Below are positions 55 to 44,363 of a DNA stretch of 44,363 bases, one piece after another (positions within the stretch are counted from its first letter, which is position 1; every line of letters begins with the position of its first letter). Both the position numbers and the translations under genes were made by a program. The notes under the pieces are model-generated. The model ran no database searches, was not told the DNA's origin, and saw nothing but the letters and a program-made list of their open reading frames with translations. This stretch comes from a virus (Duplodnaviria; Heunggongvirae; Uroviricota; Caudoviricetes). The DNA is taken from positions 1 to 44,363 of IMG/VR virus record IMGVR_UViG_2534681673_000008; one strand, written 5' to 3'.

Positions 55-639
55 TTACTCCCTGACAGGGTTCGTAGGCCACTCAATATCAGGTGCAGTT
101 GATGTATCAACACGGTTCAGCAACACCCGATACTTTTTCCAGGCTTCCAGCAACAAGGTTTCTTTCTCCGTTGCAATTTCCAGATCTGCAGCATCCTGAA
201 GCGGCGCAATATGCTCACTGGCTACCTGCATCAAGTTGTTTTTTGTTTCTTCCGCCTCCCGGATCCGGAACAGTTTTTCTGCTTCCGTATCCTTCACCCA
301 GGCTGTGCCGTTCCACTTCTGAAACTCCCCTTCCGGCGATAACCAGGTAACATTTTCCGGTAACGGACCGAGTTCAGAAATAAATAACGCGTTGCCGGAA
401 GCCACGTCATAAACCGTTTTACCCCGATGATCTTCAACGAGATGCCACGATGACTCATCACTGTTGAAAACAGCCACGAAGCCAGCCGGAATATCTGGCG
501 GTGCAATATCGGTACTGTTTGCTGGCAGACCTGTATGAGGCGGAATATATGCATCACCTTCACCAATAAATTCATTAGTTCCGGCCAGCAGATTATAAAT
601 TTTTATGGTCCGTGGTTGTTCACTCATTCTGAATGCCAT
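55..639 (-). CDS. tfa: Tail fiber assembly protein (lambda Tfa-like, 194 aa)
   Basis: ORF length and sequence match remembered lambda Tfa; lies directly downstream of stf with overlapping stop/start. Confidence 0.9.
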
Positions 640-4767: not shown

Positions 4768-8169
<3,402 letters not shown>

Positions 8170-27166: not shown

Positions 27167-27550
27167 TTAATTAGAGTTATTAACAACGATATCCATCTCT
27201 AACCGGATATCTAATGCCATTAACATCCCTTCAATTATGCCCTCAGCCTTCTGTAACCTTTTCCCGATATAACCATCAGAGCAGCAATGCTTACCTGCCA
27301 GTGACATGAATGTCATACCGACTACATAATAATCTACTAATAAATCGTGCAAATCGCTGTTGTTCTTTTTCAGACGGGCCATGCACCCGCAAATAATCAT
27401 CGCGTCATCGTCACAACATTGCGGGCGAGATTTTACTTTTGAAGTAATTAATCCCTTAAAACCGGCGGCAATGGACGACCAGGTCACATCTTCATGATTA
27501 TTAGCCGCCCACGCTCCCCAACGCTCAAGAACCATCTGAATATCACGCAT
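27167..27550 (-). CDS. quuD: Late antiterminator Q (82/DLP12 QuuD type, 127 aa)
   Basis: Translation from [18 protein letters not shown] matches DLP12 QuuD; position upstream of the lysis cassette. Confidence 0.8.
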
Positions 27551-27635
27551 CAACTTACTCCACAAAAATCAGACCAGAACGCCAATTACAAGCAAAAATC
27601 AACAAAACAGTATTAGTTGATTGTTATCTCTGACT

Positions 27636-30799: not shown

Positions 30800-32326
30800 T
30801 CAAAAATAAACCTCACCATCAACCATATATTTGAGAGTACTTATCGCCTGCTGGGCGGATATTGTTTTCATTAAAGGATAGTGTTTAAAAACAATGCCAT
30901 TCATAAAATAGATATCACAGGTTTTATTATCTGTATTGATTATGATTTTTTCGAATGTTTTATAGGCAAGTGTACGACATAGCTCTCGCCCATTTTTACT
31001 GGTTAAGTCAATAGCATGAAAATCACCAAGTGAGCTCACCGCTTTACTCTTCAAAGTTTTTAATGATACAGAAGCCCTTCGTAATTCCTTATCTAATACT
31101 CTGATTTTTTCTGCTATAGCGGTAACTTCAGGCGCAACAGATAATGCAGCAATTAAATTATTAATTTTCATCTGGAGCTCAATAATTTTCAACTCTAAAG
31201 TTTCATTAGCATCTTTCTTGTTTTCAACTGGTTGGATTTTACTACAATTAAAAAGCAACTCATTAATGATATTATAATCAACCAAATCTCTCTTTATTGA
31301 TGGCCTGTCACATCGATGCAGTCTTCTCATCGGACAAACATAATAGCCATGCAAACTTCCAGATACCGCATGAACAATCATGGTATTACCACAAGCCTCG
31401 CACTTCATAACTGTTCGAAGTAGATTTATCAACATAGGGTTTTTGCTACTATTGCTAATACCAAAAGGTGCCAACCGAATTTCCTGCACAGCGTAAAACA
31501 AATCATCTGATATGACTCTGGGATAATAGCCAGCGATTTCACTTATTCCTTTACCTCTTGCACGATATGAAGGTACGCATATACCTATCAGAGCTTTATT
31601 CGCTAATAATTTTTCAATTACAGAAGGTCCCCATGCACTTTCTTTTCCTGAGAAATTCTTTACAGCATGATCATTTAAATACTTGGCTATTGCATTCAAT
31701 GAGCGCCTTTCCATCCTGAGTTTAAAAATTAGCTCAATAGTTTTCACCCTGTCGGGGTCTGGAACAAAAGCCGTTCTTTTGTCATCTAAGGAGAGCCATC
31801 TCGGACAAGACGCCGTCATAATCGTGCCTGACTCCAGTGCATCCTGCCGTTTTTTCTTCCATGATAATTTAACCCGACTTGACTTTATCTCGCTTTCTTC
31901 ATTTGCCCTTTGTGCTATAAGTATGGCTTTTATTAATGAATATGGATCATTCAAAGAGTCAATATTATAGACTGTATTATCGCAAAGAGTTATAACATCA
32001 ATACCGTGATTCAAAATCAATTTCAGACGCTCAATCGCTTCACCGACTTTTTCTCTTGAAAGTCTGTCCAGACTTTCAACTAACAATGTAGTTCCTGGCA
32101 ATATATAACCATGCTCTATAGCATCTAAAAATTCCGAAAAAGCTCCTGATTGTGCATGCTTTCCTTTGAATGCACTTAATCCTAAATCTTCATATGTTAT
32201 GGTATCAAGATAATAATCACTATTTACCTTTAACCATTCAGCAATAAGTCTTCTCTGTCGGTTTAATGAGTCGCCAGACATCTGACCTGGTGATGAAAAT
32301 CGCATATATGCTATGGCTTTTTTCAT
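30800..32326 (-). CDS. ybcK: Large serine recombinase (YbcK-like, 508 aa)
   Basis: N-terminal resolvase catalytic motif AIAYMRFSSPGQ, recombinase domain and Cys-rich zinc-ribbon region. Confidence 0.85.
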   Translation of the reverse strand: MKKAIAYMRFSSPGQMSGDSLNRQRRLIAEWLKVNSDYYLDTITYEDLGLSAFKGKHAQSGAFSEFLDAIEHGYILPGTTLLVESLDRLSREKVGEAIERLKLILNHGIDVITLCDNTVYNIDSLNDPYSLIKAILIAQRANEESEIKSSRVKLSWKKKRQDALESGTIMTASCPRWLSLDDKRTAFVPDPDRVKTIELIFKLRMERRSLNAIAKYLNDHAVKNFSGKESAWGPSVIEKLLANKALIGICVPSYRARGKGISEIAGYYPRVISDDLFYAVQEIRLAPFGISNSSKNPMLINLLRTVMKCEACGNTMIVHAVSGSLHGYYVCPMRRLHRCDRPSIKRDLVDYNIINELLFNCSKIQPVENKKDANETLELKIIELQMKINNLIAALSVAPEVTAIAEKIRVLDKELRRASVSLKTLKSKAVSSLGDFHAIDLTSKNGRELCRTLAYKTFEKIIINTDNKTCDIYFMNGIVFKHYPLMKTISAQQAISTLKYMVDGEVYF

Positions 32327-34996: not shown

Positions 34997-35536
34997 TCAT
35001 ATCGCCCCCAGCATGGTAGTAACCATCGCCATCAATGGACCAGCCAGATCTGGGTCCACACGAAACATCGACACAATACCTTCACTAATTTCCTTCAGTT
35101 TCTGGTGGCGTGGTGCGTTGAGAATGACAGCCTGTTTTGCCTCACTGAGTTCCTTTTCCATTTCAGCCAGCCGAGCCATGAAGCTATCCTGCGCAACCAG
35201 GTGGCCGCGATATTTCAGCGGTAGTACTGCCAGAATTGCTGGAGTCAGTTCACGCACGTTATTTCGGTATTTTTCAGAATCGAATTTGTTATCGAGAAAG
35301 CGGAACAGCTTCTGGCGTGCACGACTGACATCATCAGAAAAATCGATAGTGCCGCCGCCCTGTGCTCGATACTCATTCACAATGAGTGCGGCAACGACAT
35401 CCTGATTATCTTCAGCCGACCAGGCGCGGACGGCATCACGGATTTTTTCGTGGCCTGGCACCTGTTTTGTTTGAGAACGATTTATCACCGCAGTCGGGCT
35501 AAATCCGCTAGTCTGTTGGTATGTAAGTGGTTGCAT
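34997..35536 (-). CDS. YdaT-like protein in the cII position (179 aa)
   Basis: Placed immediately after the YdaS-like cro analog; strong AAAGGAGT Shine-Dalgarno; family assignment from remembered Rac YdaT motifs, unverified. Confidence 0.55.
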   Translation of the reverse strand: MQPLTYQQTSGFSPTAVINRSQTKQVPGHEKIRDAVRAWSAEDNQDVVAALIVNEYRAQGGGTIDFSDDVSRARQKLFRFLDNKFDSEKYRNNVRELTPAILAVLPLKYRGHLVAQDSFMARLAEMEKELSEAKQAVILNAPRHQKLKEISEGIVSMFRVDPDLAGPLMAMVTTMLGAI

Positions 35537-35580
35537 AATTGACTCCTTTAGTTTGAATTGACTGTTAAGTTGATTGCTTA

Positions 35581-35593
35581 TTGTTAAAGAGCG
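35581..35593 (-). promoter_or_regulatory. boxA-like element CGCTCTTTAACAA just downstream of cro (nutR position)
   Basis: Minus-strand sequence matches boxA consensus; no obvious boxB hairpin follows. Confidence 0.4.
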
Positions 35594-35605
35594 TGAAATG
35601 GAAAT

Positions 35606-35836
35606 TTAAGCTGCGTTCTTTTCGGTGTGTGGAAACAACTTCGGAAGATCCGGGCGAATCTGGTATGCCTTCACTACTCCACCAGTAGCCGTAACAATGC
35701 TGCCGACATGTTCAGGGGATACCTTTGCTTTGTTGTGAAGCCACTTATAGACGGCCTGCTGTGAAACTTCGCAAGCAGCGCCCAGTTTCTTTTGTGAACC
35801 AACGATATTGATCGCTGTTTTGATAGCTGGGTTCAT
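35606..35836 (-). CDS. cro: Cro-analog HTH regulator, YdaS family (76 aa)
   Basis: AINIVGSQKKLGAACEVSQQAVYKW HTH; divergent from the repressor across the operator region. Confidence 0.8.
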   Translation of the reverse strand: MNPAIKTAINIVGSQKKLGAACEVSQQAVYKWLHNKAKVSPEHVGSIVTATGGVVKAYQIRPDLPKLFPHTEKNAA

Positions 35837-35939
35837 AACAACCTCCGTGGTTAATTTGAATCAAGATTAAAACTATGGTTGTTTTAGTCAACAACCATTT
35901 TCGTTTGATGAAATAAAACCTTGGTTGTACATTTGGACT
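35837..35939. promoter_or_regulatory. Right operator/promoter region (oR, PR/PRM) with pseudo-palindrome TAAAACTATGGTTGTTTTA at 35868-35886
   Basis: Divergent repressor/cro arrangement; operator core TAAAACAAC recurs here and in the oL region. Confidence 0.6.
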
Positions 35940-36629
35940 ATGAAAACAACACTCTCAGAAAGACTTAAAGAAGCCAGATTAGCGCGAGGCCTTACACAAA
36001 AGGCGCTTGGGGATTTGGTCGGGGTTAGCCAAGCTGCTATTCAGAAAATCGAAACAGGGAAAGCTAATCAAACAACTAAAATCGTGGAGATCGCGAACGC
36101 TTTGGGTGTGCGCGCAGAATGGTTATCTTCTGGCGTTGGAAATATGTCAGACAGTACAGTGCAACCAATACAATCAACTGTCAGCCATTCCAAATACTTC
36201 AAGATTGACGTTCTTGATATAGAAGTCAGTGCTGGGCCGGGAGTCATCAACCGTGAGTTTGTAGAAGTTCTACGCTCGGTTGAGTACTCGTTTGACGATG
36301 CTCGTCATATGTTCGATGGTAGGAAGGCGGAAAATATCCGCATCATTAACGTGCGTGGTGACAGCATGTCAGGAACGATCGAACCAGGTGATCTGCTGTT
36401 CGTTGATATCACAGTTAAATCTTTCGACGGTGATGGTATCTATGCGTTTCTGTACGACGACACAGCCCATGTAAAGCGCCTGCAAATGATGAAGGATAAG
36501 CTGCTGGTCATCTCTGATAACAAAAGCTACTCACCGTGGGACCCGATCGAGAAAGACGAGATGAACCGGGTGTTCATCTTCGGTAAGGTTATTGGGAGCA
36601 TGCCGCAGACATATAGGAAGCATGGGTAG
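35940..36629 (+). CDS. cI: CI-type repressor (N-terminal HTH, C-terminal S24 LexA-like autopeptidase), non-lambda immunity
   Basis: HTH LTQKALGDLVGVSQAAIQKIETGK; S24 motifs GDSM (Ser) and HVKRL (Lys); ORF track begins at an upstream TTG (35925). Confidence 0.85.
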   Translation: MKTTLSERLKEARLARGLTQKALGDLVGVSQAAIQKIETGKANQTTKIVEIANALGVRAEWLSSGVGNMSDSTVQPIQSTVSHSKYFKIDVLDIEVSAGPGVINREFVEVLRSVEYSFDDARHMFDGRKAENIRIINVRGDSMSGTIEPGDLLFVDITVKSFDGDGIYAFLYDDTAHVKRLQMMKDKLLVISDNKSYSPWDPIEKDEMNRVFIFGKVIGSMPQTYRKHG

Positions 36630-36750
36630 TACCAATTAAAAATTATCAACTGGGCATTGTGCTCATTCAGTAAAGAACTAATTCCTATCTTTGCTCTAGG
36701 TAGTAATATTAAGCCACCGCAATAATATCTTTACCTAACGGCGTAAGAAT

Positions 36751-36778
36751 CCCGGTCACCGTGCCGGGTTTTCTTTTG
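36751..36778 (+). terminator. Rho-independent terminator after the repressor gene
   Basis: CCCGG-TCACCGTG-CCGGG followed by TTTTCTTTT. Confidence 0.65.
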
Positions 36779-36889
36779 CCCTCCCCTCATCACACACACC
36801 GTTAAAAAAACCACCATAACCTCGCTTCAGTTATCGCTATGCGATTCAAGTCACAAAATAAATCCATCCTAAATACAACCAGTTATATC

Positions 36890-36947
36890 TAAAACAACCA
36901 ATAAAACAACTTTTGTTGTTGACGGTAAAACAACTATAGTTTTAAAT
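36890..36947 (+). promoter_or_regulatory. Left operator/promoter (oL/pL): three direct TAAAACAAC operator cores (36890, 36902, 36926) overlapping -35 TTGACG (36919-36924) and -10 TTAAAT (36942-36947)
   Basis: Sigma70-like hexamers with 17-bp spacer; operator core shared with oR. Confidence 0.55.
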
Positions 36948-37140
36948 AAGTTCATCGCAACAACACAACGATACGGCAACCACCTGATTCACCGTTGCGA
37001 TGACCGCTTAGATCCGCAGTTTGAATTTCAGCAGGCTTCGGGGAGTGCGAGGGGTGAAACGGACGCGTGAACGTCGGTGTGACCAGCTGAAATCAACTCA
37101 ACATTTCATACCTTAGTCGCTTCAACGAGGCGGCTTAGTT

Positions 37141-37431
37141 ATGACAACCGGCGGCCATCCACCGCCTGAATACGCGCAGAAGTCTCTATATGTTCAGCAG
37201 CCCAGCTTACGGGCAGGAGTTTTTATGGTTCATCAACATTACGGAACGCAGACCGTTAATCGCGGCGCGGTCATGCCAGGAATGCTGGTCAAACACAAAG
37301 ATGGTACCTGGACTGCATCAGCTAATTTACGCGGACGGCTTTATCTGCATCGCGGCATCGAGCGCACTTATACCCGTGATTTGCTCGTGGAAGTTTTTCT
37401 CGACGGACGCGGTAACGGCCTGAATCGCTAA
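37141..37431 (+). CDS. Hypothetical protein (96 aa), first ORF of the pL operon in the N/kil position; not N-like
   Basis: ORF with GAGG about 10 nt upstream; no arginine-rich motif; lambda homology resumes at its 3-prime end. Confidence 0.4.
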
Positions 37432-37506
37432 TCCCCTTTCCTGTTTTCCTAATCAGCCTGGCATTTCGCGGGCGATATTTTCACAGCCATTTTCAGGAGT
37501 TCAGCC

Positions 37507-37803
37507 ATGAACGCTTATTACATTCAGGATCGTCTTGAGGCTCAGAGCTGGGCGCGTCACTACCAGCAGATCGCCCGTGAAGAGAAAGAGGCAGAACTGG
37601 CAGACGACATGGAAAAAGGCCTGCCCCAGCATTTGTTTGAATCGCTCTGCATCGATCATTTACAACGCTGCGGGGCCAGCAAAAAAGCCATTACCCGTGC
37701 ATTTGATGACGATGTTGAGTTTCAGGAGCGCATGGCAGAACACATCCGGTACATGGTTGAAACCATTGCTCACCATCAGGTTGATATTGATTCAGAGGTA
37801 TAA
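37507..37803 (+). CDS. gam: Gam, RecBCD inhibitor (GamS form, 98 aa)
   Basis: [45 protein letters not shown] matches lambda Gam. Confidence 0.9.
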
Positions 37804-39271: not shown

Positions 39272-39426
39272 AGCATCCTCACGATAATATCCGGGTAGGC
39301 GCGATCACTTTCATCTACTCCATTACAAAGCGAGGCTGGGTATTTCCCGGCCTTTCTGTTATCAGAAATCCACTGAAAGCACAGCGGCTGGCTGAGAAGA
39401 TAAATAATAAACAGGAGGATATATGA
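39268..39426 (+). CDS. Orf60a-like small protein (52 aa); start overlaps exo stop and stop overlaps the next start
   Basis: Hand-translated [52 protein letters not shown] resembles lambda orf60a. Confidence 0.6.
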
Positions 39427-40487
39427 GTCAGGTTGGTAATCATTCATTCGAATTTCCGGCATCGCAAGGTGTACAGGGTGGTACTGTTACACTCTTCCTT
39501 ACCATACCAGGAAGATCGCTGGCTCGTTTCCTCGCTTCAGATAATTACGGCCATACACTGGCACGCTCTCAGCGAGAAATTAATCCAAATCGAGTACGAA
39601 AATTTTTAAATTATCTCACTAACGCAGACTCAAGAAATGAGCCTTTTATCATTCCCCCTCTCGTAGGTAACTGTGATTCGAATATAGAATTTGTACCGTT
39701 TGGCAACACAAATGTTGGTATAGCCAGAATTCCCCTCGACGCCGAAATAAAACTTTTTGATGGTCAACATCGTGCAGCTGGCATTGAGATATTTTGCCGA
39801 AGTTCCCCATCAACGCTCATGGTTCCCATGATGCTTACAATGAATCTGCCGCTAAAAACCCGGCAGCAGTTCTTTTCGGACATAAATAACAACGTTTCTA
39901 AGCCATCAGCGACCATCAATATGGCGTATAACGGCCGGGATGATATTGCTCAGGGAATGATATCCTTCCTGACCCAACATACTGTATTTGCCGATATAAC
40001 CGATTTTGAACACAACGTAGTGCCATTAAAAAGTAATATGTGGGTGAGTTTCAAGGCACTCACTGATGCAACGTCAAAGTTCGCCAGGAACGGCAATCAA
40101 CAACTTGAAATGGGATATATAGAATCTGTCTGGGAGGCATGGATTACACTAACTCAGATTGACTCAATCCGACATGGTGTACACCACGCTACGTACAAGC
40201 GCGATTATATTCAGTTCCATGGAGTAATGATTAACGCTTTCGGTTTTGCGGTTCAACAGATGATGGTTAATCATTCCATCGCAGAAATAACTTCTATGAT
40301 CGAAAAACTATGTGCAACTACCAGCTCTGCAGAAAGAGAGGATTTTTTTCTGATGGATAACTGGGCGGGGATCTGCACGAAAGCCAGCCAGGAAAAACTA
40401 TCTGTTATTGCCAATGTGGCAGCGCAGAAAGCAGCAGCAAACAGACTGATACAAGCTTTTACCAAAGGAAGTCTGGAATCAACTTAA
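39423..40487 (+). CDS. DGQHR-domain protein (DndB-like / ParB-Srx fold, 354 aa) in the accessory slot downstream of exo
   Basis: Hallmark motif FDGQHRAAGIE at about residue 104; size typical of DndB family; AGGAGG Shine-Dalgarno and ATGA overlap with orf60a. Confidence 0.7.
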   Translation: MSQVGNHSFEFPASQGVQGGTVTLFLTIPGRSLARFLASDNYGHTLARSQREINPNRVRKFLNYLTNADSRNEPFIIPPLVGNCDSNIEFVPFGNTNVGIARIPLDAEIKLFDGQHRAAGIEIFCRSSPSTLMVPMMLTMNLPLKTRQQFFSDINNNVSKPSATINMAYNGRDDIAQGMISFLTQHTVFADITDFEHNVVPLKSNMWVSFKALTDATSKFARNGNQQLEMGYIESVWEAWITLTQIDSIRHGVHHATYKRDYIQFHGVMINAFGFAVQQMMVNHSIAEITSMIEKLCATTSSAEREDFFLMDNWAGICTKASQEKLSVIANVAAQKAAANRLIQAFTKGSLEST

Positions 40488-40640
40488 TGAATCAACATTG
40501 TCTCATATCAGCATGCTGTACGGCGTCTTTAAGGAACGGTGAGCATGAAAAACAAAATCATCATGGAGCTACAGGCTCCTTTTTTATTATTCGCATTCAC
40601 CCTCAAGCGTATTAACCAACAATTCAGGGATTAATGAAAG

Positions 40641-40862
40641 ATGGCAGACATCATTGATTCAGCATCAGAAATTGAAGAATTACAGCGCAACACAGCAATA
40701 AAAATGCGCCGCCTGAACCACCAGGCTATATCTGCCACTCATTGTTGTGAGTGTGGCGATCCGATAGATGAACGAAGACGCCTGGCCGTTCAGGGTTGTC
40801 GGACTTGTGCAAGTTGCCAGGAGGATCTGGAACTTATCAGTAAACAGAGAGGTTCGAAGTGA
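40641..40862 (+). CDS. TraR/DksA-family C4 zinc-finger protein (lambda Orf73-like, 73 aa)
   Basis: CxxC...CxxC motif (CCECGDPIDERRRLAVQGCRTCASCQ); 73 aa. Confidence 0.8.
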   Translation: MADIIDSASEIEELQRNTAIKMRRLNHQAISATHCCECGDPIDERRRLAVQGCRTCASCQEDLELISKQRGSK

Positions 40863-41014
40863 GCGAAATTAACTAGAAGCCAAAGATAAAATCATCGCTG
40901 AGCAGGAGAAAATCGCTAACGGAGAAAAGACAGTAAGTCAGTATATGAAAACCGCATGATATCATCAGATAAAAATCGATCGTAAAGCGAAATATTAATA
41001 CCAGAGTAAACGAG

Positions 41015-41038
41015 TCGAGGTAAATTATATTACCTCGA
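41015..41038. other. Stem-loop (9-bp stem TCGAGGTAA / TTACCTCGA) between convergent genes; no clear U-tract
   Basis: Perfect inverted repeat seen in sequence. Confidence 0.35.
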
Positions 41039-41072
41039 TAAATTAACTAAAACTTGCCCGCTATATACTATC

Positions 41073-41675
41073 TCATTCAGTATCATCACGCGCGGTCTGT
41101 GCATATGTCACTACCGCACCTAATGTATTAATTTTCTTTTCAACATAGATAATATTATCGTACTCATAATTGCCATACGGATAGCAAATGCGAATATTCT
41201 CATGTAGATCGGGGTCATCCACCTCAGCTCCAGAACAACTTTTTGAACTACCGGAAGTATACCGATACGGTGCAACATAAGACGATGTATCTCCAGGCAA
41301 AAAATAAGTTAGTGTTGTAAGAGGTATAATCAGAAAAAATCCAGCAAATATGCACATCCCTGCATAAACCTTAAGGTATGCTGACAGACTCTTCCAGCCG
41401 CTTTGTTTTACTATCCCCTTCTTAACCCAAAACAGAGATAACAGAAAAGCTATTCCCATGCTAAACAGAATGTAATAGTGGGATATACTCTGATTAAGAA
41501 ACGTGACCCTGTAAATATCTGCCCGCCACCAGAAGAAAAGGAAAATAAAGATCAGGCCTGAAACTGTCATGCAAATCAAATAAGGATACGAATCTTTTTT
41601 CATGTTTAGCGCCCATAAAATTTTTCCTGCCCCGGACAAATTTACCATCCATTTTTTGCGCAGAAAATAGCTCAT
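41073..41675 (-). CDS. Hypothetical polytopic membrane protein (200 aa; alternative ATG at 41601-41603), antisense to the early-left operon
   Basis: Three to four hydrophobic helices (e.g. YLICMTVSGLIFIFLFFWW); AT-rich; no Shine-Dalgarno evident at either start. Confidence 0.55.
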   Translation of the reverse strand: MSYFLRKKWMVNLSGAGKILWALNMKKDSYPYLICMTVSGLIFIFLFFWWRADIYRVTFLNQSISHYYILFSMGIAFLLSLFWVKKGIVKQSGWKSLSAYLKVYAGMCIFAGFFLIIPLTTLTYFLPGDTSSYVAPYRYTSGSSKSCSGAEVDDPDLHENIRICYPYGNYEYDNIIYVEKKINTLGAVVTYAQTARDDTE

Positions 41676-41917
41676 TACTTACTGCACAATAATACACAAA
41701 ATTGCGTAAATTTTTTGCATGGATTTTAGCTCTTTCAGCCGACGTTTAAGGGGTAAATAGCATTTCCTAAAAGCAACTGCACCAACCCAACAGAATGAGC
41801 TACCGCTTACGTTGAGAGCAAAAAAGTGTATAGCAGCAATGAACAGCATCCTCGCACTGACGGGGATTTCTTTTATCTGAGCTCGCTACGGCGAGTTTTG
41901 TTTTATGGAGACAAGAA

Positions 41918-42262
41918 ATGTCAGATTTGGCTATGAAGGTTTTGAAATGGCAATCAACTGGCGATGTCGGCATCAGTAGCGCAACTCTTGCCTCAATCGC
42001 ATGTGGCCTGAAAAAGAATATCTATGGTCATCACTTCGGCGCTCCCCATGACGCAGCAGACTTTCGGCGATGCGTTGCACTTGTTGAGCAGATTCCAGAA
42101 ATCAGAGATTCATTCGACAAGGTTGCAAAGCGCGTTCCGGCATTCAAAGGAATCCTCAACGAATGGGATTCACTCGTTGCTCTGTTGAAGTCTGAAATGA
42201 AGACGTACGGGAACAAAGCACCAGAGACTTACAGAAGAATCAGCGAGCTACGCAAGGACTAA
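41918..42262 (+). CDS. Hypothetical protein (114 aa)
   Basis: ORF followed directly by terminator hairpins; no recognisable motif. Confidence 0.5.
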   Translation: MSDLAMKVLKWQSTGDVGISSATLASIACGLKKNIYGHHFGAPHDAADFRRCVALVEQIPEIRDSFDKVAKRVPAFKGILNEWDSLVALLKSEMKTYGNKAPETYRRISELRKD

Positions 42263-42265
42263 CCC

Positions 42266-42294
42266 GCCTCACACTCGATGAGGCATTTTCATTT
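42266..42294 (+). terminator. Rho-independent terminator after the 114-aa ORF
   Basis: GCCTCA-CACTCGA-TGAGGC then ATTTTCATTT. Confidence 0.5.
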
Positions 42295-42319
42295 ATCAAG
42301 ATATCCAGACCTACCATCG

Positions 42320-42340
42320 CCGCATCAATGCGGTTTTTTT
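42320..42340 (+). terminator. Second terminator hairpin upstream of the excisionase gene
   Basis: CCGCA-TCAA-TGCGG followed by TTTTTTT. Confidence 0.5.
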
Positions 42341-42385
42341 ATTACCTGATTTGCAGGTTCGATTCCCTATTCGGAGATAGCACTC

Positions 42386-42586
42386 ATGCAACACGAACTA
42401 CAGCCTGATTCCCTGGTTGATTTGAAATTCATCATGGCTGATACTGGCTTTGGTAAAACCTTCATCTACGACCGGATTAAGTCCGGCGACCTGCCAAAAG
42501 CCAAAGTTATCCACGGGCGAGCAAGATGGTTATATCGTGACCATTGTGAATTCAAAAATAAGCTCTTAAGCCGCGCCAATGGGTAA
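42386..42586 (+). CDS. torI: Excisionase / recombination directionality factor, TorI(AlpA)-type (66 aa)
   Basis: Matches remembered KpLE1 TorI (MQHELQPDSLVDLKFIMADTGFGKTFIYDRI...); last prophage gene before the att core. Confidence 0.8.
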   Translation: MQHELQPDSLVDLKFIMADTGFGKTFIYDRIKSGDLPKAKVIHGRARWLYRDHCEFKNKLLSRANG

Positions 42587-42659
42587 AATAGCGGGTAAAA
42601 TATTTCTCACACCTAAAAAACACCATTCCAATCAATCCCCTGCCGCTTCAAGTAGATGT

Positions 42660-42674
42660 CTGCAGGGGACACCA
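42660..42674 (+). other. att core: 15-nt copy of the 3-prime end of tRNA-Arg (argW type), CTGCAGGGGACACCA; not a complete tRNA
   Basis: Matches remembered argW 3-prime end only; upstream sequence does not form the rest of a tRNA. Confidence 0.5.
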
Positions 42675-43115
42675 GATACCCTTCAAACGAAATCTACCTT
42701 CACCCCGTAAAAGATGGGTTTGGCAGCACACTTGCCTTATATCTACTCATTTTTACTGCAACAGGTTGAAATCTCAGCACTGTCAGAAAGCGCTGATGAC
42801 TAAACAGCCCTGGGCCGGGCGATGTAACCATCACACAGAATCCTGATAGCGAAATATGGCGTGACTCGATACTTCACTCCGCAATGCATTCCTTGATGAA
42901 TTCGCAGGACCGTGATACACGGGACAGGTCACTGAATGACGACAATGTCCTGGAAATCAGCGAACCGCGCATCTGAAGTACATTTGAGCGACTGTACCAG
43001 AACATGAATGAGGCGTTTGGATTAGGCGATTATTAGCAGGGCTAAGCATTTTACTATTATTATTTTCCGGTTGAGGGATATAGAGCTATCGACAACAACC
43101 GGAAAAAGTTTACGT

Positions 43116-44363
43116 CTATATTGCTGAAGGTACAGGCGTTTCCATAACTATTTGCTCGCGTTTTTTACTCAAGAAGAAAATGCCAAATAGCAACATCAGG
43201 CAGACAATACCCGAAATTGCGAAGAAAACTGTCTGGTAGCCTGCGTGGTCAAAGAGTATCCCAGTCGGCGTTGAAAGCAGCACAATCCCAAGCGAACTGG
43301 CAATTTGAAAACCAATCAGAAAGATCGTCGACGACAGGCGCTTATCAAAGTTTGCCACGCTGTATTTGAAGACGGATATGACACAAAGTGGAACCTCAAT
43401 GGCATGTAACAACTTCACTAATGAAATAATCCAGGGGTTAACGAACAGCGCGCAGGAAAGGATACGCAACGCCATAATCACAACTCCGATAAGTAATGCA
43501 TTTTTTGGCCCTACCCGATTCACAAAGAAAGGAATAATCGCCATGCACAGCGCTTCGAGTACCACCTGGAATGAGTTGAGATAACCATACAGGCGCGTTC
43601 CTACATCGTGTGATTCGAATAAACCTGCATAAAAGACAGGAAAAAGTTGTTGATCAAAAATGTTATAGAAAGACCACGTCCCCACAATAAATATGACGAA
43701 AACCCAGAAGTTTCGATCCTTGAAAACTGCGATAAAATCCTCTTTTTTTACCCCTCCCGCATCTGCCGCTACGCACTGGTGATCCTTATCTTTAAAACGC
43801 ATGTTGATCATCATAAATACAGCGCCAAATAGCGAGACCAACCAGAAGTTGATATGGGGACTGATACTAAAAAATATGCCGGCAAAGAACGCGCCAATAG
43901 CATAGCCAAAAGATCCCCAGGCGCGCGCTGTTCCATATTCGAAATGAAAATTTCGCGCCATTTTTTCGGTGAAGCTATCAAGCAAACCGCATCCCGCCAG
44001 ATACCCCAAGCCAAAAAATAGCGCCCCCAGAATTAGACCTACAGAAAAATTGCTTTGCAGTAACGGTTCATAAACGTAAATCATAAACGGTCCGGTCAAG
44101 ACCAGGATGAAACTCATACACCAGATGAGCGGTTTCTTCAGACCGAGTTTATCCTGAACGATGCCGTAGAACATCATAAATAGAATGCTGGTAAACTGGT
44201 TGACCGAATAAAGTGTACCTAATTCCGTCCCTGTCAACCCTAGATGTCCTTTCAGCCAAATAGCGTATAACGACCACCACAGCGACCAGGAAATAAAAAA
44301 GAGAAATGAGTAACTGGATGCAAAACGATAGTACGCATTTCTGAATGGAATATTCAGTGCCAT
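43116..44363 (-). CDS. cscB: Sucrose permease CscB (LacY-family oligosaccharide:H+ symporter, 415 aa); host gene flanking the prophage
   Basis: Matches remembered CscB (MALNIPFRNAYYRFASSYSFLFF...); 12-TM MFS protein; start codon is the last three bases of the window. Confidence 0.9.
   Translation of the reverse strand: MALNIPFRNAYYRFASSYSFLFFISWSLWWSLYAIWLKGHLGLTGTELGTLYSVNQFTSILFMMFYGIVQDKLGLKKPLIWCMSFILVLTGPFMIYVYEPLLQSNFSVGLILGALFFGLGYLAGCGLLDSFTEKMARNFHFEYGTARAWGSFGYAIGAFFAGIFFSISPHINFWLVSLFGAVFMMINMRFKDKDHQCVAADAGGVKKEDFIAVFKDRNFWVFVIFIVGTWSFYNIFDQQLFPVFYAGLFESHDVGTRLYGYLNSFQVVLEALCMAIIPFFVNRVGPKNALLIGVVIMALRILSCALFVNPWIISLVKLLHAIEVPLCVISVFKYSVANFDKRLSSTIFLIGFQIASSLGIVLLSTPTGILFDHAGYQTVFFAISGIVCLMLLFGIFFLSKKREQIVMETPVPSAI

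Follow-up and report, generated by a model that had tools for sequence, protein, structure and literature searches.

Leader and promoter region of an N-less, Kil-first early-left operon in a lambdoid prophage

The pL-gam interval and its reading frames

The window analysed here is the whole stretch of 44,363 nucleotides (nt) held as IMG/VR record IMGVR_UViG_2534681673_000008 (Caudoviricetes), a lambdoid prophage in which the "leftward" direction runs along the + strand and the genes that follow cI on that strand are kil, gam, bet and exo. Our subject is the interval from 36890 to 37506, which contains the left operators (oL), the promoter pL, a leader and kil, and ends at gam. We read this interval, with moderate confidence, as the start of an early-left operon that has Kil first and lacks N, comprising its operators, promoter and 5' leader, and in which kil-gam-bet-exo need no antitermination. 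The leader ends in a cassette (37104-37224) that is a selected RNA structure and recurs in other lambdoid phages.

The N-less order of pL, leader and gam is common to the plaque-forming phages 4A7, 4C10, PhiR5_1, PhiR34_1, Turner and Perceval. The nearest relatives of the window are PhiR5_1, PhiR34_1, Turner, IdasGreatGrand, PhiR47_2, 4A7, 4C10 (genus Bievrevirus) and Perceval, and the module is carried by 2,238 of 5,426 complete Escherichia coli genomes (41%). Three immunity types occur among the relatives: A, that of the window, B, that of 4A7, and C, that of L006. Types A and B have a common leader from the transcription start onward, and type C shares it only from 36988.

The unit formed by cI and its cargo ends in a terminator-like hairpin on the + strand (36751-36768, CCCGGTCACCGTGCCGGG, with a T-rich tail, TTTTCTTTTG, to 36778), and conservation among all relatives sets in at about 36745, so as to include it. 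An exact-match scan found three copies of the operator core TAAAACAAC on the + strand at 36890, 36902 and 36926; a fourth is located in oR at 35878 on the - strand, and the oL and oR operator copies are identical at 19 of 20 nt. Read from the sequence, pL (+ strand) consists of a -35 element TTGACG (36919-36924), a 17-nt spacer and a -10 element TTAAAT (36942-36947), with a T at the second -10 base, and is missed by a consensus promoter scan. Type-B relatives have a better -10, TATTAT, and because it is equally distant from the shared leader, the pL transcript is inferred to start near A36954. The cI terminator and the pL-like promoter with three operator cores, as described in the initial annotation, were thus all located.

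A start near A36954 would therefore put a stem-loop at the extreme 5' end of the RNA (+ strand, 36952-37003), formed by pairing of TCATCGCAAC (36952-36961) with GTTGCGATGA (36994-37003) around a C-rich loop of 32 nt. The stem has 10 base pairs (bp) in DNA and about 8 bp when counted from the presumed +1; folded alone, the hairpin reaches -13.4 kcal/mol (z = -2.5 against shuffles), so that the 10-bp stem noticed earlier is borne out by both sequence and folding. It is retained in types A and B, and type C (L006) keeps 5 bp only. The description of the leader as structured did not hold for the leader as a whole, since its 281 nt are no more stable than shuffles (z = -0.09) and only the 5' hairpin stands out.

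Between this hairpin and the cassette lies a lineage-specific segment (+ strand, 37004-37103), in which a long-range helix can be drawn between about 37025-37033 and 37086-37094, together with a small hairpin, GACG-CGTGAA-CGTC, at 37062-37075. The sequence from 36954 to 37103 is confined to a family of 16 phages, as judged by blastn and by a tblastn search of 50,697 phage genomes with the leader peptide. Fold energy did not rise above shuffles for 37004-37104 (z = 0.02) or 36955-37104 (z = 0.19), and a second test on the segment gave z = -1.7, rated no better than shuffles. RNAalifold on 39 distinct family sequences returned single-sided changes and no double-sided compensatory ones, in a family too shallow for such an analysis (no members below about 85% identity were found), and indels of 1 and 5 nt are tolerated in the segment. 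Variable sites per nt amount to about 0.16-0.24 over 36988-37103, 0.28 at kil third positions and 0.06 in 37141-37224, the least variable stretch within the family. No leader segment has a second copy on the pR transcript of the window or of 4A7. A duplicated motif, AATCAACT(C/T)AACA at 37091 and 35575, was considered and dropped, being without type-B copies and not recovered by blastn-short. Rfam searches of the whole window at gathering thresholds, and of 35400-37600 at E<=10, gave only chance matches near the leader.

The open reading frame (ORF) of 96 amino acids (aa) reported between pL and gam is present at 37141-37431, but it is neither an unknown gene nor a candidate antiterminator, as its matches identify it as Kil. 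The gene itself (+ strand, 37225-37431) codes for a 68-aa predicted FtsZ inhibitor of the phi80/KilR type, and the longer ORF consists of kil plus a 28-codon in-frame extension from the AUG of the cassette; the 96-aa frame would be the product of the chance in-frame position of that AUG relative to kil. Kil matches phrog_294 (E 1.6e-38) and NCBIfam NF008465, "FtsZ inhibitor protein", with E 3.6e-17 and an alignment that begins at residue 1 of the 68-aa form. Its score of 62 bits stays under the curated cutoff of 92 bits, which makes it a relative and not an equivalog of a family that we take to represent Rac KilR. Kil is 40% identical to phi80 Kil (E 5e-15) and has no similarity to the 47-aa Kil of lambda. 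Both phi80 and HK225 have a Kil of the same protein family. Inhibition of FtsZ and cell division is, on these annotations, the predicted activity. N, cIII, ral and sieB are indeed missing before gam, but kil, listed with them as absent, is present.

Four lines of support suggest that ATG 37225 is the real kil start. The ribosome-binding motif AGGAG is located 5 nt upstream, as read from the sequence. The similarity of Kil proteins from Citrobacter, Kluyvera, Enterobacter, Silvania and Pseudocitrobacter starts exactly at MVHQHYG/MIHQHYG, with unrelated sequence before it. Among 60 distinct sequences, 37225-37431 carries 19 synonymous and 2 nonsynonymous changes and zero indels. Lastly, PGAP calls exactly the 68-aa coding sequence, with nothing annotated under 36950-37224 in RefSeq genomes.

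Downstream of kil, pairwise alignment with lambda shows a lambda-like kil-gam junction (+ strand, 37428-37506). Lambda homology restarts at about 37428, at the end of the ORF as initially described, and the frameshift suspected in the N-terminal extension of Gam was also found: compared with lambda, the window has an additional T near 37490 that breaks the reading frame of the GamL extension, and only the GamS form is intact (+ strand, 37507-37803, 98 aa, Pfam Gam E 4.9e-64). The extra T is missing in 3 of 60 relatives.

A conserved RNA cassette upstream of kil

The kil-leader cassette (+ strand, 37104-37224) was delimited by homologous blocks in other lambdoid phages, by a covarying hairpin, HP2, and by a covariance model, R2. 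It starts with CATACCT, followed by HP2, in which 37115-37120 pairs with 37130-37135 around the loop UUCAACGAG, with a conserved loop pattern UU..GAG. Next come an AUG block (UUAGUUAUGAC / UUAGUUAUGA, containing UUAUGA), whose AUG at 37141 opens the 96-aa ORF, and the near-invariant hairpin HP3 (37150-37166, GGCGG-CCAUCCA-CCGCC). The block GCGCAGAAGUCU (37174-37185) and a small hairpin at 37200-37214, beside the Shine-Dalgarno (SD) sequence AGGAG at 37215-37219, complete the cassette.

The cassette occurs in phi80, HK225, HK639, KO-TP1, BHUENT6, CobraSix, S9-5 and more than 100 IMG/VR viral contigs, with 95% identity between HK225 and the window over 37104-37166 and about 84-85% for phi80. In enterobacterial lambdoid phages it lies upstream of kil or of neighbouring early-left genes, usually directly after a terminator. 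R2 matches the window at 37108-37169 with 85.7 bits, and it finds the cassette once per phage, always in the left operon; further copies are located at 2005-2065 of L101, 2005-2066 of L102 and 2648-2708 of L098. Weak matches of R2 were also obtained in lambda, between ea10 and cIII (L103 777-821, - strand, 14 bits, E 0.03), and in HK022 (L004 2442-2487), and both may be due to chance.

That the cassette is a selected RNA structure is shown by HP2, where 34 distinct sequences have compensatory changes in six of six pairs. Its covariation score is 0.59 against 0.17 for shuffles, a value reached by 0 of 500 shuffles, and the pairs are formed in about 96.6-98% of cells compared with 35-63% for slid controls. 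Relatives differ in the spacing between the AUG and HP3, and hence in the reading frame over HP3, so the conserved entity is an RNA or DNA sequence and not a peptide; a conserved "MTTGGHPPP" peptide was rejected on this ground. HP3 was likewise rejected as a terminator in the window, where TGAATACG comes after it with no T-run; HK639 (ATATTTTT) and CobraSix (CACATTTTTTT) have a T-run several bases past HP3. Rfam returned no family for the cassette region and no published description of the cassette was found in the literature.

What precedes the cassette is where the window parts from its counterparts. In phi80, N is followed by the intrinsic terminator tL1A and then immediately by the cassette, and an annotated nutL lies upstream; in HK225 it likewise follows a hairpin and T-run of the tL1A type, and in HK639 it follows a terminator and genes downstream of putL. 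By inspection, the pL transcript of phi80 and HK225 also appears to start near a short hairpin with a CATCG motif, as in the window. However, whereas phi80 has an annotated N, a putative nutL with boxA and core, and tL1A before the cassette, an unrelated leader of about 150 nt takes their place in the window. A T-run of at least four just before the cassette was counted in 61 of 78 distinct upstream contexts, 16 of these 61 also having a hairpin at -8 kcal/mol or better. Among window-type contexts (10 binned, plus 2 variants placed in "other") the number with a terminator before the cassette was 0.

The Kil relatives of other genera (L087-L094) have leaders unrelated to that of the window and are thus unusable for covariation analysis of it. 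Within this set, L087-L093 (Citrobacter, Silvania, Enterobacter and Kluyvera) have N-less leaders from pL to kil with conserved blocks of their own about 100-200 nt upstream of kil, where, by eye, a candidate hairpin near the likely start, CGACAAC...GUUGUC, is accompanied by the motif GUUCCGCCAGCCUGGCGACAAGGGCAA; some of these leaders could also form a long helix, CUUCGCGGUGGUG...CACCACCAGCGAAG.

Early-left transcription without N

No N gene lies between pL and gam, as was initially proposed. Pfam, PHROGs and NCBIfam found no N family among the leader frames or the proteins of the window, and when lambda N, phi80 N and HK022 Nun were compared by tblastn with all frames of the window, the best E was about 1. 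A PHROG-style annotation of 4A7 lists a Q-like protein and no N, and annotation of the same style labels lambda N correctly. Judged by the features of the lambda N/nut system, the first gene of pL is not N and no arginine-rich motif is under coding selection.

The order of cI, terminator, oL/pL, early genes and gam-bet-exo is that of lambda, in which N is dispensable when terminators are absent, as the N-independent nin5 and byp derivatives illustrate. From pL to the end of exo on the + strand, a terminator scan found only two weak candidates of 5-6 bp with poor tails (37374 and 37456). No tL1-like terminator, that is, a G+C-rich hairpin with a T-run, was detected by scan in 36950-37224, and the tL1A of phi80 and HK225 is missing. 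On the other side, a crude consensus scan, which is weak evidence, found no convincing intrinsic terminator in the pR operon between pR and the Q antiterminator gene (27167-27565, - strand), a state reminiscent of nin-type, N-independent lambda that would leave little need for N on the right.

Based on these results, the block preceding the cassette may have been replaced in this lineage by a terminator-free leader of about 150 nt. Elsewhere that block is nutL-N-tL1 (phi80), other genes and tL1 (HK225), or putL with genes and a terminator (HK639). After derepression, RNA polymerase would reach kil-gam-bet-exo without a dedicated antiterminator, because the leader holds no terminator. Stem-loops at the 5' end generally stabilise E. 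coli mRNA ends, and the 5'-terminal stem-loop of the leader most likely protects the mRNA in the same manner. The cassette is most likely a structured translation-start region, which would load ribosomes ahead of the toxic kil and limit access of Rho; both roles are inferred. Unlike the nin5 and byp derivatives, the N-less state here is natural in a widespread lineage and not that of a laboratory mutant, and strong distal left terminators persist.

Those terminators speak against an operon that needs no antitermination. A strong terminator-like site lies within the early-left operon at 40565-40589 (+ strand, GGAGCTACAGGCTCC followed by TTTTTTATTA), upstream of DksA-like and excisionase-like genes, and its hairpin is conserved at the same relative place in 4A7 (L005 30867-30853). 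Further strong hairpins are found at 41848, 41879, 42266 and 42319, upstream of the excisionase-like gene, and in 4A7 the stretch between P and Q contains good candidates as well (39589 and 41663). With such terminators in the same operon and between P and Q of 4A7, there must be a means of read-through somewhere, or else additional promoters, and the proposal supplies no route past 40565, 42266 and 42319. Several other observations point in the same direction. Common polymorphisms are about three times rarer in the lineage-specific segment than at kil third positions, which implies some constraint, and in contigs L121 (about 6130-6300) and L124 (reverse, about 450-660) putL adjoins the cassette without an intervening gene or terminator and so fills the exact slot of that segment. 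Moreover, Rho-dependent terminators are undetectable by sequence.

Several of the same observations speak for the likeliest alternative, namely that the segment at about 36954-37103, with its 5' stem-loop and G-rich helix, is a new cis-acting antiterminator RNA that would do the job of put without the put sequence, binding polymerase and letting pL transcripts pass 40565 and later terminators. Like putL, the segment lies immediately downstream of pL. It is common to three immunity types, has the scarcity of common polymorphisms just mentioned and occupies the slot taken by putL in L121 and L124, in a lineage without N and put that has kept a strong internal terminator. By eye, GAAACGGACGCG...ACGUCGG even loosely resembles stem I of put (GAACGGCGCG...GCGUCGG), a likeness without statistical support. 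However, the put model described below finds nothing in the segment, it folds no more stably than shuffled sequence (z = 0.02 and 0.19) and the 39 distinct sequences contain no compensatory changes. Type C does without most of the 5' hairpin, 1- and 5-nt indels are tolerated, and there is no counterpart on the pR transcript. We therefore regard this explanation as improbable, and assign the same low standing to the broader proposal that the leader of about 150 nt, alone or with the HP2-HP3 cassette, represents a new class of cis-acting RNA for terminator resistance or some other form of early-left control.

Slightly less likely still is that the operon relies on boxA and host Nus factors, as rRNA operons and boxA-protected CRISPR arrays do. 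The boxA reported downstream of cro is there: the core GCTCTTTAACAA occupies 35581-35592 on the - strand (35581-35593 with a flanking base, CGCTCTTTAACAA) and belongs to the pR transcript. It sits 13 nt past the stop codon of cro, in the 69-nt gap between cro and the YdaT/CII-like gene, is the sole exact copy of this 12-mer in the window and is conserved at the equivalent position in every type-A relative. When the sequence around it was read, no adjacent hairpin that could serve as boxB was seen, as the initial annotation had it. We take GCTCTTTAACAA to match the boxA consensus of rrn operons, more closely than the boxA of lambda itself does, and the CRISPR arrays in which antitermination was studied are said to use boxA. 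Complexes formed on boxA are not known to suppress intrinsic terminators. According to two studies, NusB-NusE binds boxA, and rRNA is not the only target of the Nus complex (PMC3177189, PMC5725501); another paper deals with antitermination in CRISPR arrays (PMC7665894). The boxA complexes are described as countering Rho-dependent termination (PMC4807359, PMC5725501).

The proposal that boxA and host factors carry the early operon is upheld only in part. The site is exact and conserved in type A, but it lies on the pR transcript; in the pL leader no boxA turned up even when 2 mismatches were allowed, and in type-B relatives, among them the viable phage 4A7, boxA is missing and the cro-ydaT gap is only 30 nt. 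Because type B lacks the site and the pL leader is without one, boxA is not the general solution of the lineage and cannot act on the pL leader interval. Compared with the rrn-type boxA/Nus system, the window has the exact 12-nt core on its pR transcript but none on its pL leader, sister immunity types are without it, and its function here is only putative. Where the site is present, it probably recruits NusB-NusE on the pR transcript and shields the 69-nt untranslated gap from Rho.

A third alternative, that the leader codes for an N-like antiterminator, is very unlikely. The initial remark that there is no arginine-rich motif is correct for the 96-aa ORF but not for the same frame upstream of it, which reads RLRGVRGVKRTRERRCDQLK. 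The frame could be opened by TTG 37021, giving MNFSRLRGVRGVKRTRERRCDQLKSTQHFIP, or by GTG 37045, and carries the motif KRTRERRCDQLK, whose RERR core resembles known arginine-rich RNA-binding motifs and recalls that of lambda N, which we take to be TRRRERRAEKQ. In the window it is closed by a TAG at 37114-37116, but this is a minority allele (3 of 60); most relatives have CAG, 57 of the 60 distinct sequences keep the frame open, and in most relatives it would continue into kil to form a protein of 128-136 aa. In PhiR47_2, a 128-aa "Kil" is annotated from a start within this frame. Gene callers vary on the length of Kil (68, 93-96, 128 or 136 aa) because most relatives have CAG at 37114-37116.

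The substitutions do not follow the arginine-rich frame. Over 37021-37140 it shows 8 synonymous and 14 nonsynonymous changes, and the other two frames 10:12 and 6:16, against 19:2 for kil. Four independent frameshifting indels (three in 37004-37103 and a fourth at 37215) and the nonsense allele interrupt it, and kil has neither. Of dinucleotide shuffles, 9% contain an open frame of 68 codons by chance; the frame lacks an ATG, its SD is weak, and the arginine codons fall on the CG-rich arms of the GACG-CGTGAA-CGTC hairpin. PhiR5_1, deposited as a complete genome with E. coli C as its host, is 100% identical to the window over 36950-37224 and so carries the TAG allele. Pfam, PHROGs and NCBIfam are empty for the leader frames, tblastn leads back to the same 16 phages only, and inspection of either operon gave no boxB partner. 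The arginine-rich ORF was rejected on its codon statistics, the indels, the shuffle test and the lack of homologs.

The weakest alternative, that the leader is an HK022-type put RNA that has diverged, would fit its position right after pL, the absence of N and the 5' stem-loop, but its likelihood is negligible, since a covariance model that recovers every true put site tested (67-95 bits) finds nothing in the leader. This model, R1, was built from 8 put RNAs (HK022 putL and putR, phiEt88, CobraSix, S9-5 (L and R), HK639 and PdC23) and scored 94.8 bits on HK022 putL, 92 on HK639 putL and 66.9 on HK022 putR. It gave no match in 36950-37225 with filters off at E<=10, its best match in the window being one of 13 bits inside a late gene. 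The put profile consists of two stem-loops with the invariant blocks GAACGGC, GUCGG, GGCGGG and GGCAAU; the leader does not match it and is without the blocks GGCGGG... and GGCAAUG, and R1 was empty for a second, putR-like site on the pR transcript of the window and of 4A7; the HK639 record itself annotates a putL-like site only. At the level of sequence and structure, then, a put-type RNA is refuted, and with it the suggestion of RNA-based antitermination as in HK022. Antitermination by put RNA is established for HK022 and HK639 (PMC9378689), which resemble the window in being lambdoid phages without N and with a cis element right downstream of pL. HK639, CobraSix, S9-5, L121 and L124 have the same cassette downstream of putL. 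HK022 and HK639 differ from the window, where put is missing in both sequence and structure, cro is not followed by a second site, and a gene like Nun is lacking. Antitermination of the HK022 type works through the beta-prime zinc-binding domain of RNA polymerase. For another N-less lambdoid phage, LLS, the use of put is only speculated upon by the authors (PMC12315714).

Neighbouring genes and significance of the N-less design

Upstream of the interval lies the gene for the cI-like repressor (35940-36629; Peptidase_S24 and helix-turn-helix domains), and on the - strand follow a YdaS-type cro (35606-35836, Pfam YdaS_toxin) and the YdaT/CII-like gene of 179 aa (34997-35536, Pfam YdaT_toxin), then O, P and ren. 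With cro matching YdaS_toxin and the next gene YdaT_toxin, the immunity region resembles that of Rac (RacR/YdaS/YdaT, KilR). The recombination genes of the window are the lambda-type gam/bet/exo, unlike those of Rac, which presumably has recET in their place. A large serine recombinase gene (30800-32326, - strand; Resolvase, Recombinase and zinc-ribbon domains) lies in the pR operon between ren and nin-like genes, placed as in 4A7.

The slot between cI and the terminator ahead of pL (36630-36750) is a variable cargo, or "moron", site. The window retains no more than the last 75 nt or so of a GevA/ASCH-domain gene (+ strand, 36671-36746), and they match the end of that gene in PhiR47_2 and 4A7; homology to L001 and L002 begins at 36671, inside GevA (L001 2199-2576). 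Elsewhere the slot contains GevT/GevA (PhiR47_2, L001 1148-2576), an ORF of 543 aa (L006 782-2413) or, in a RefSeq genome (L227 1-1067), a HipA-family kinase and a DUF3037 protein.

In the distal part of the early-left operon, a DndB-family gene (39423-40487, Pfam E 5e-46, DGQHR motif) is inserted before the 40565 hairpin, and 4A7 has the hairpin without the gene. Similarity to the closest phages ends at approximately 40837, and the remainder of the window (40837-44363) contains the excisionase-like ORF (42386-42586) and then a LacY-family permease gene (43116-44363, - strand). An integrase is absent from the listed ORFs of the window, ARAGORN found zero tRNAs within it, and the prophage may be incapable of excision. 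The sole Rfam match of the window above gathering threshold is IS009 at 98-296 (- strand, 218 bits).

Textbooks present processive antitermination as the switch in the early development of lambdoid phages and, to our knowledge, the early solutions known in lambdoid phages are N with nut sites and put RNA. N-less lambdoid phages are already known, HK022 and HK639 using put, and our literature search found nothing on early transcription or antitermination of this lineage. The module of the window has neither N/nut nor put, yet it is very common in E. coli and is present in several plaque-forming phages. If the leader modifies polymerase, it would be a third kind of early antiterminator in lambdoid phages; if the lineage dispenses with early antitermination, it would represent a natural N-independent design that originated when the nut/N/tL1 block was replaced. 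For its part, the covarying HP2-AUG-HP3 cassette that precedes kil is a widespread RNA element absent from Rfam. Most of the specific proposals of the initial annotation did not hold. The interest of the locus lies in a natural design without N and put that nevertheless has strong distal terminators, and in a well-supported conserved RNA cassette upstream of kil.

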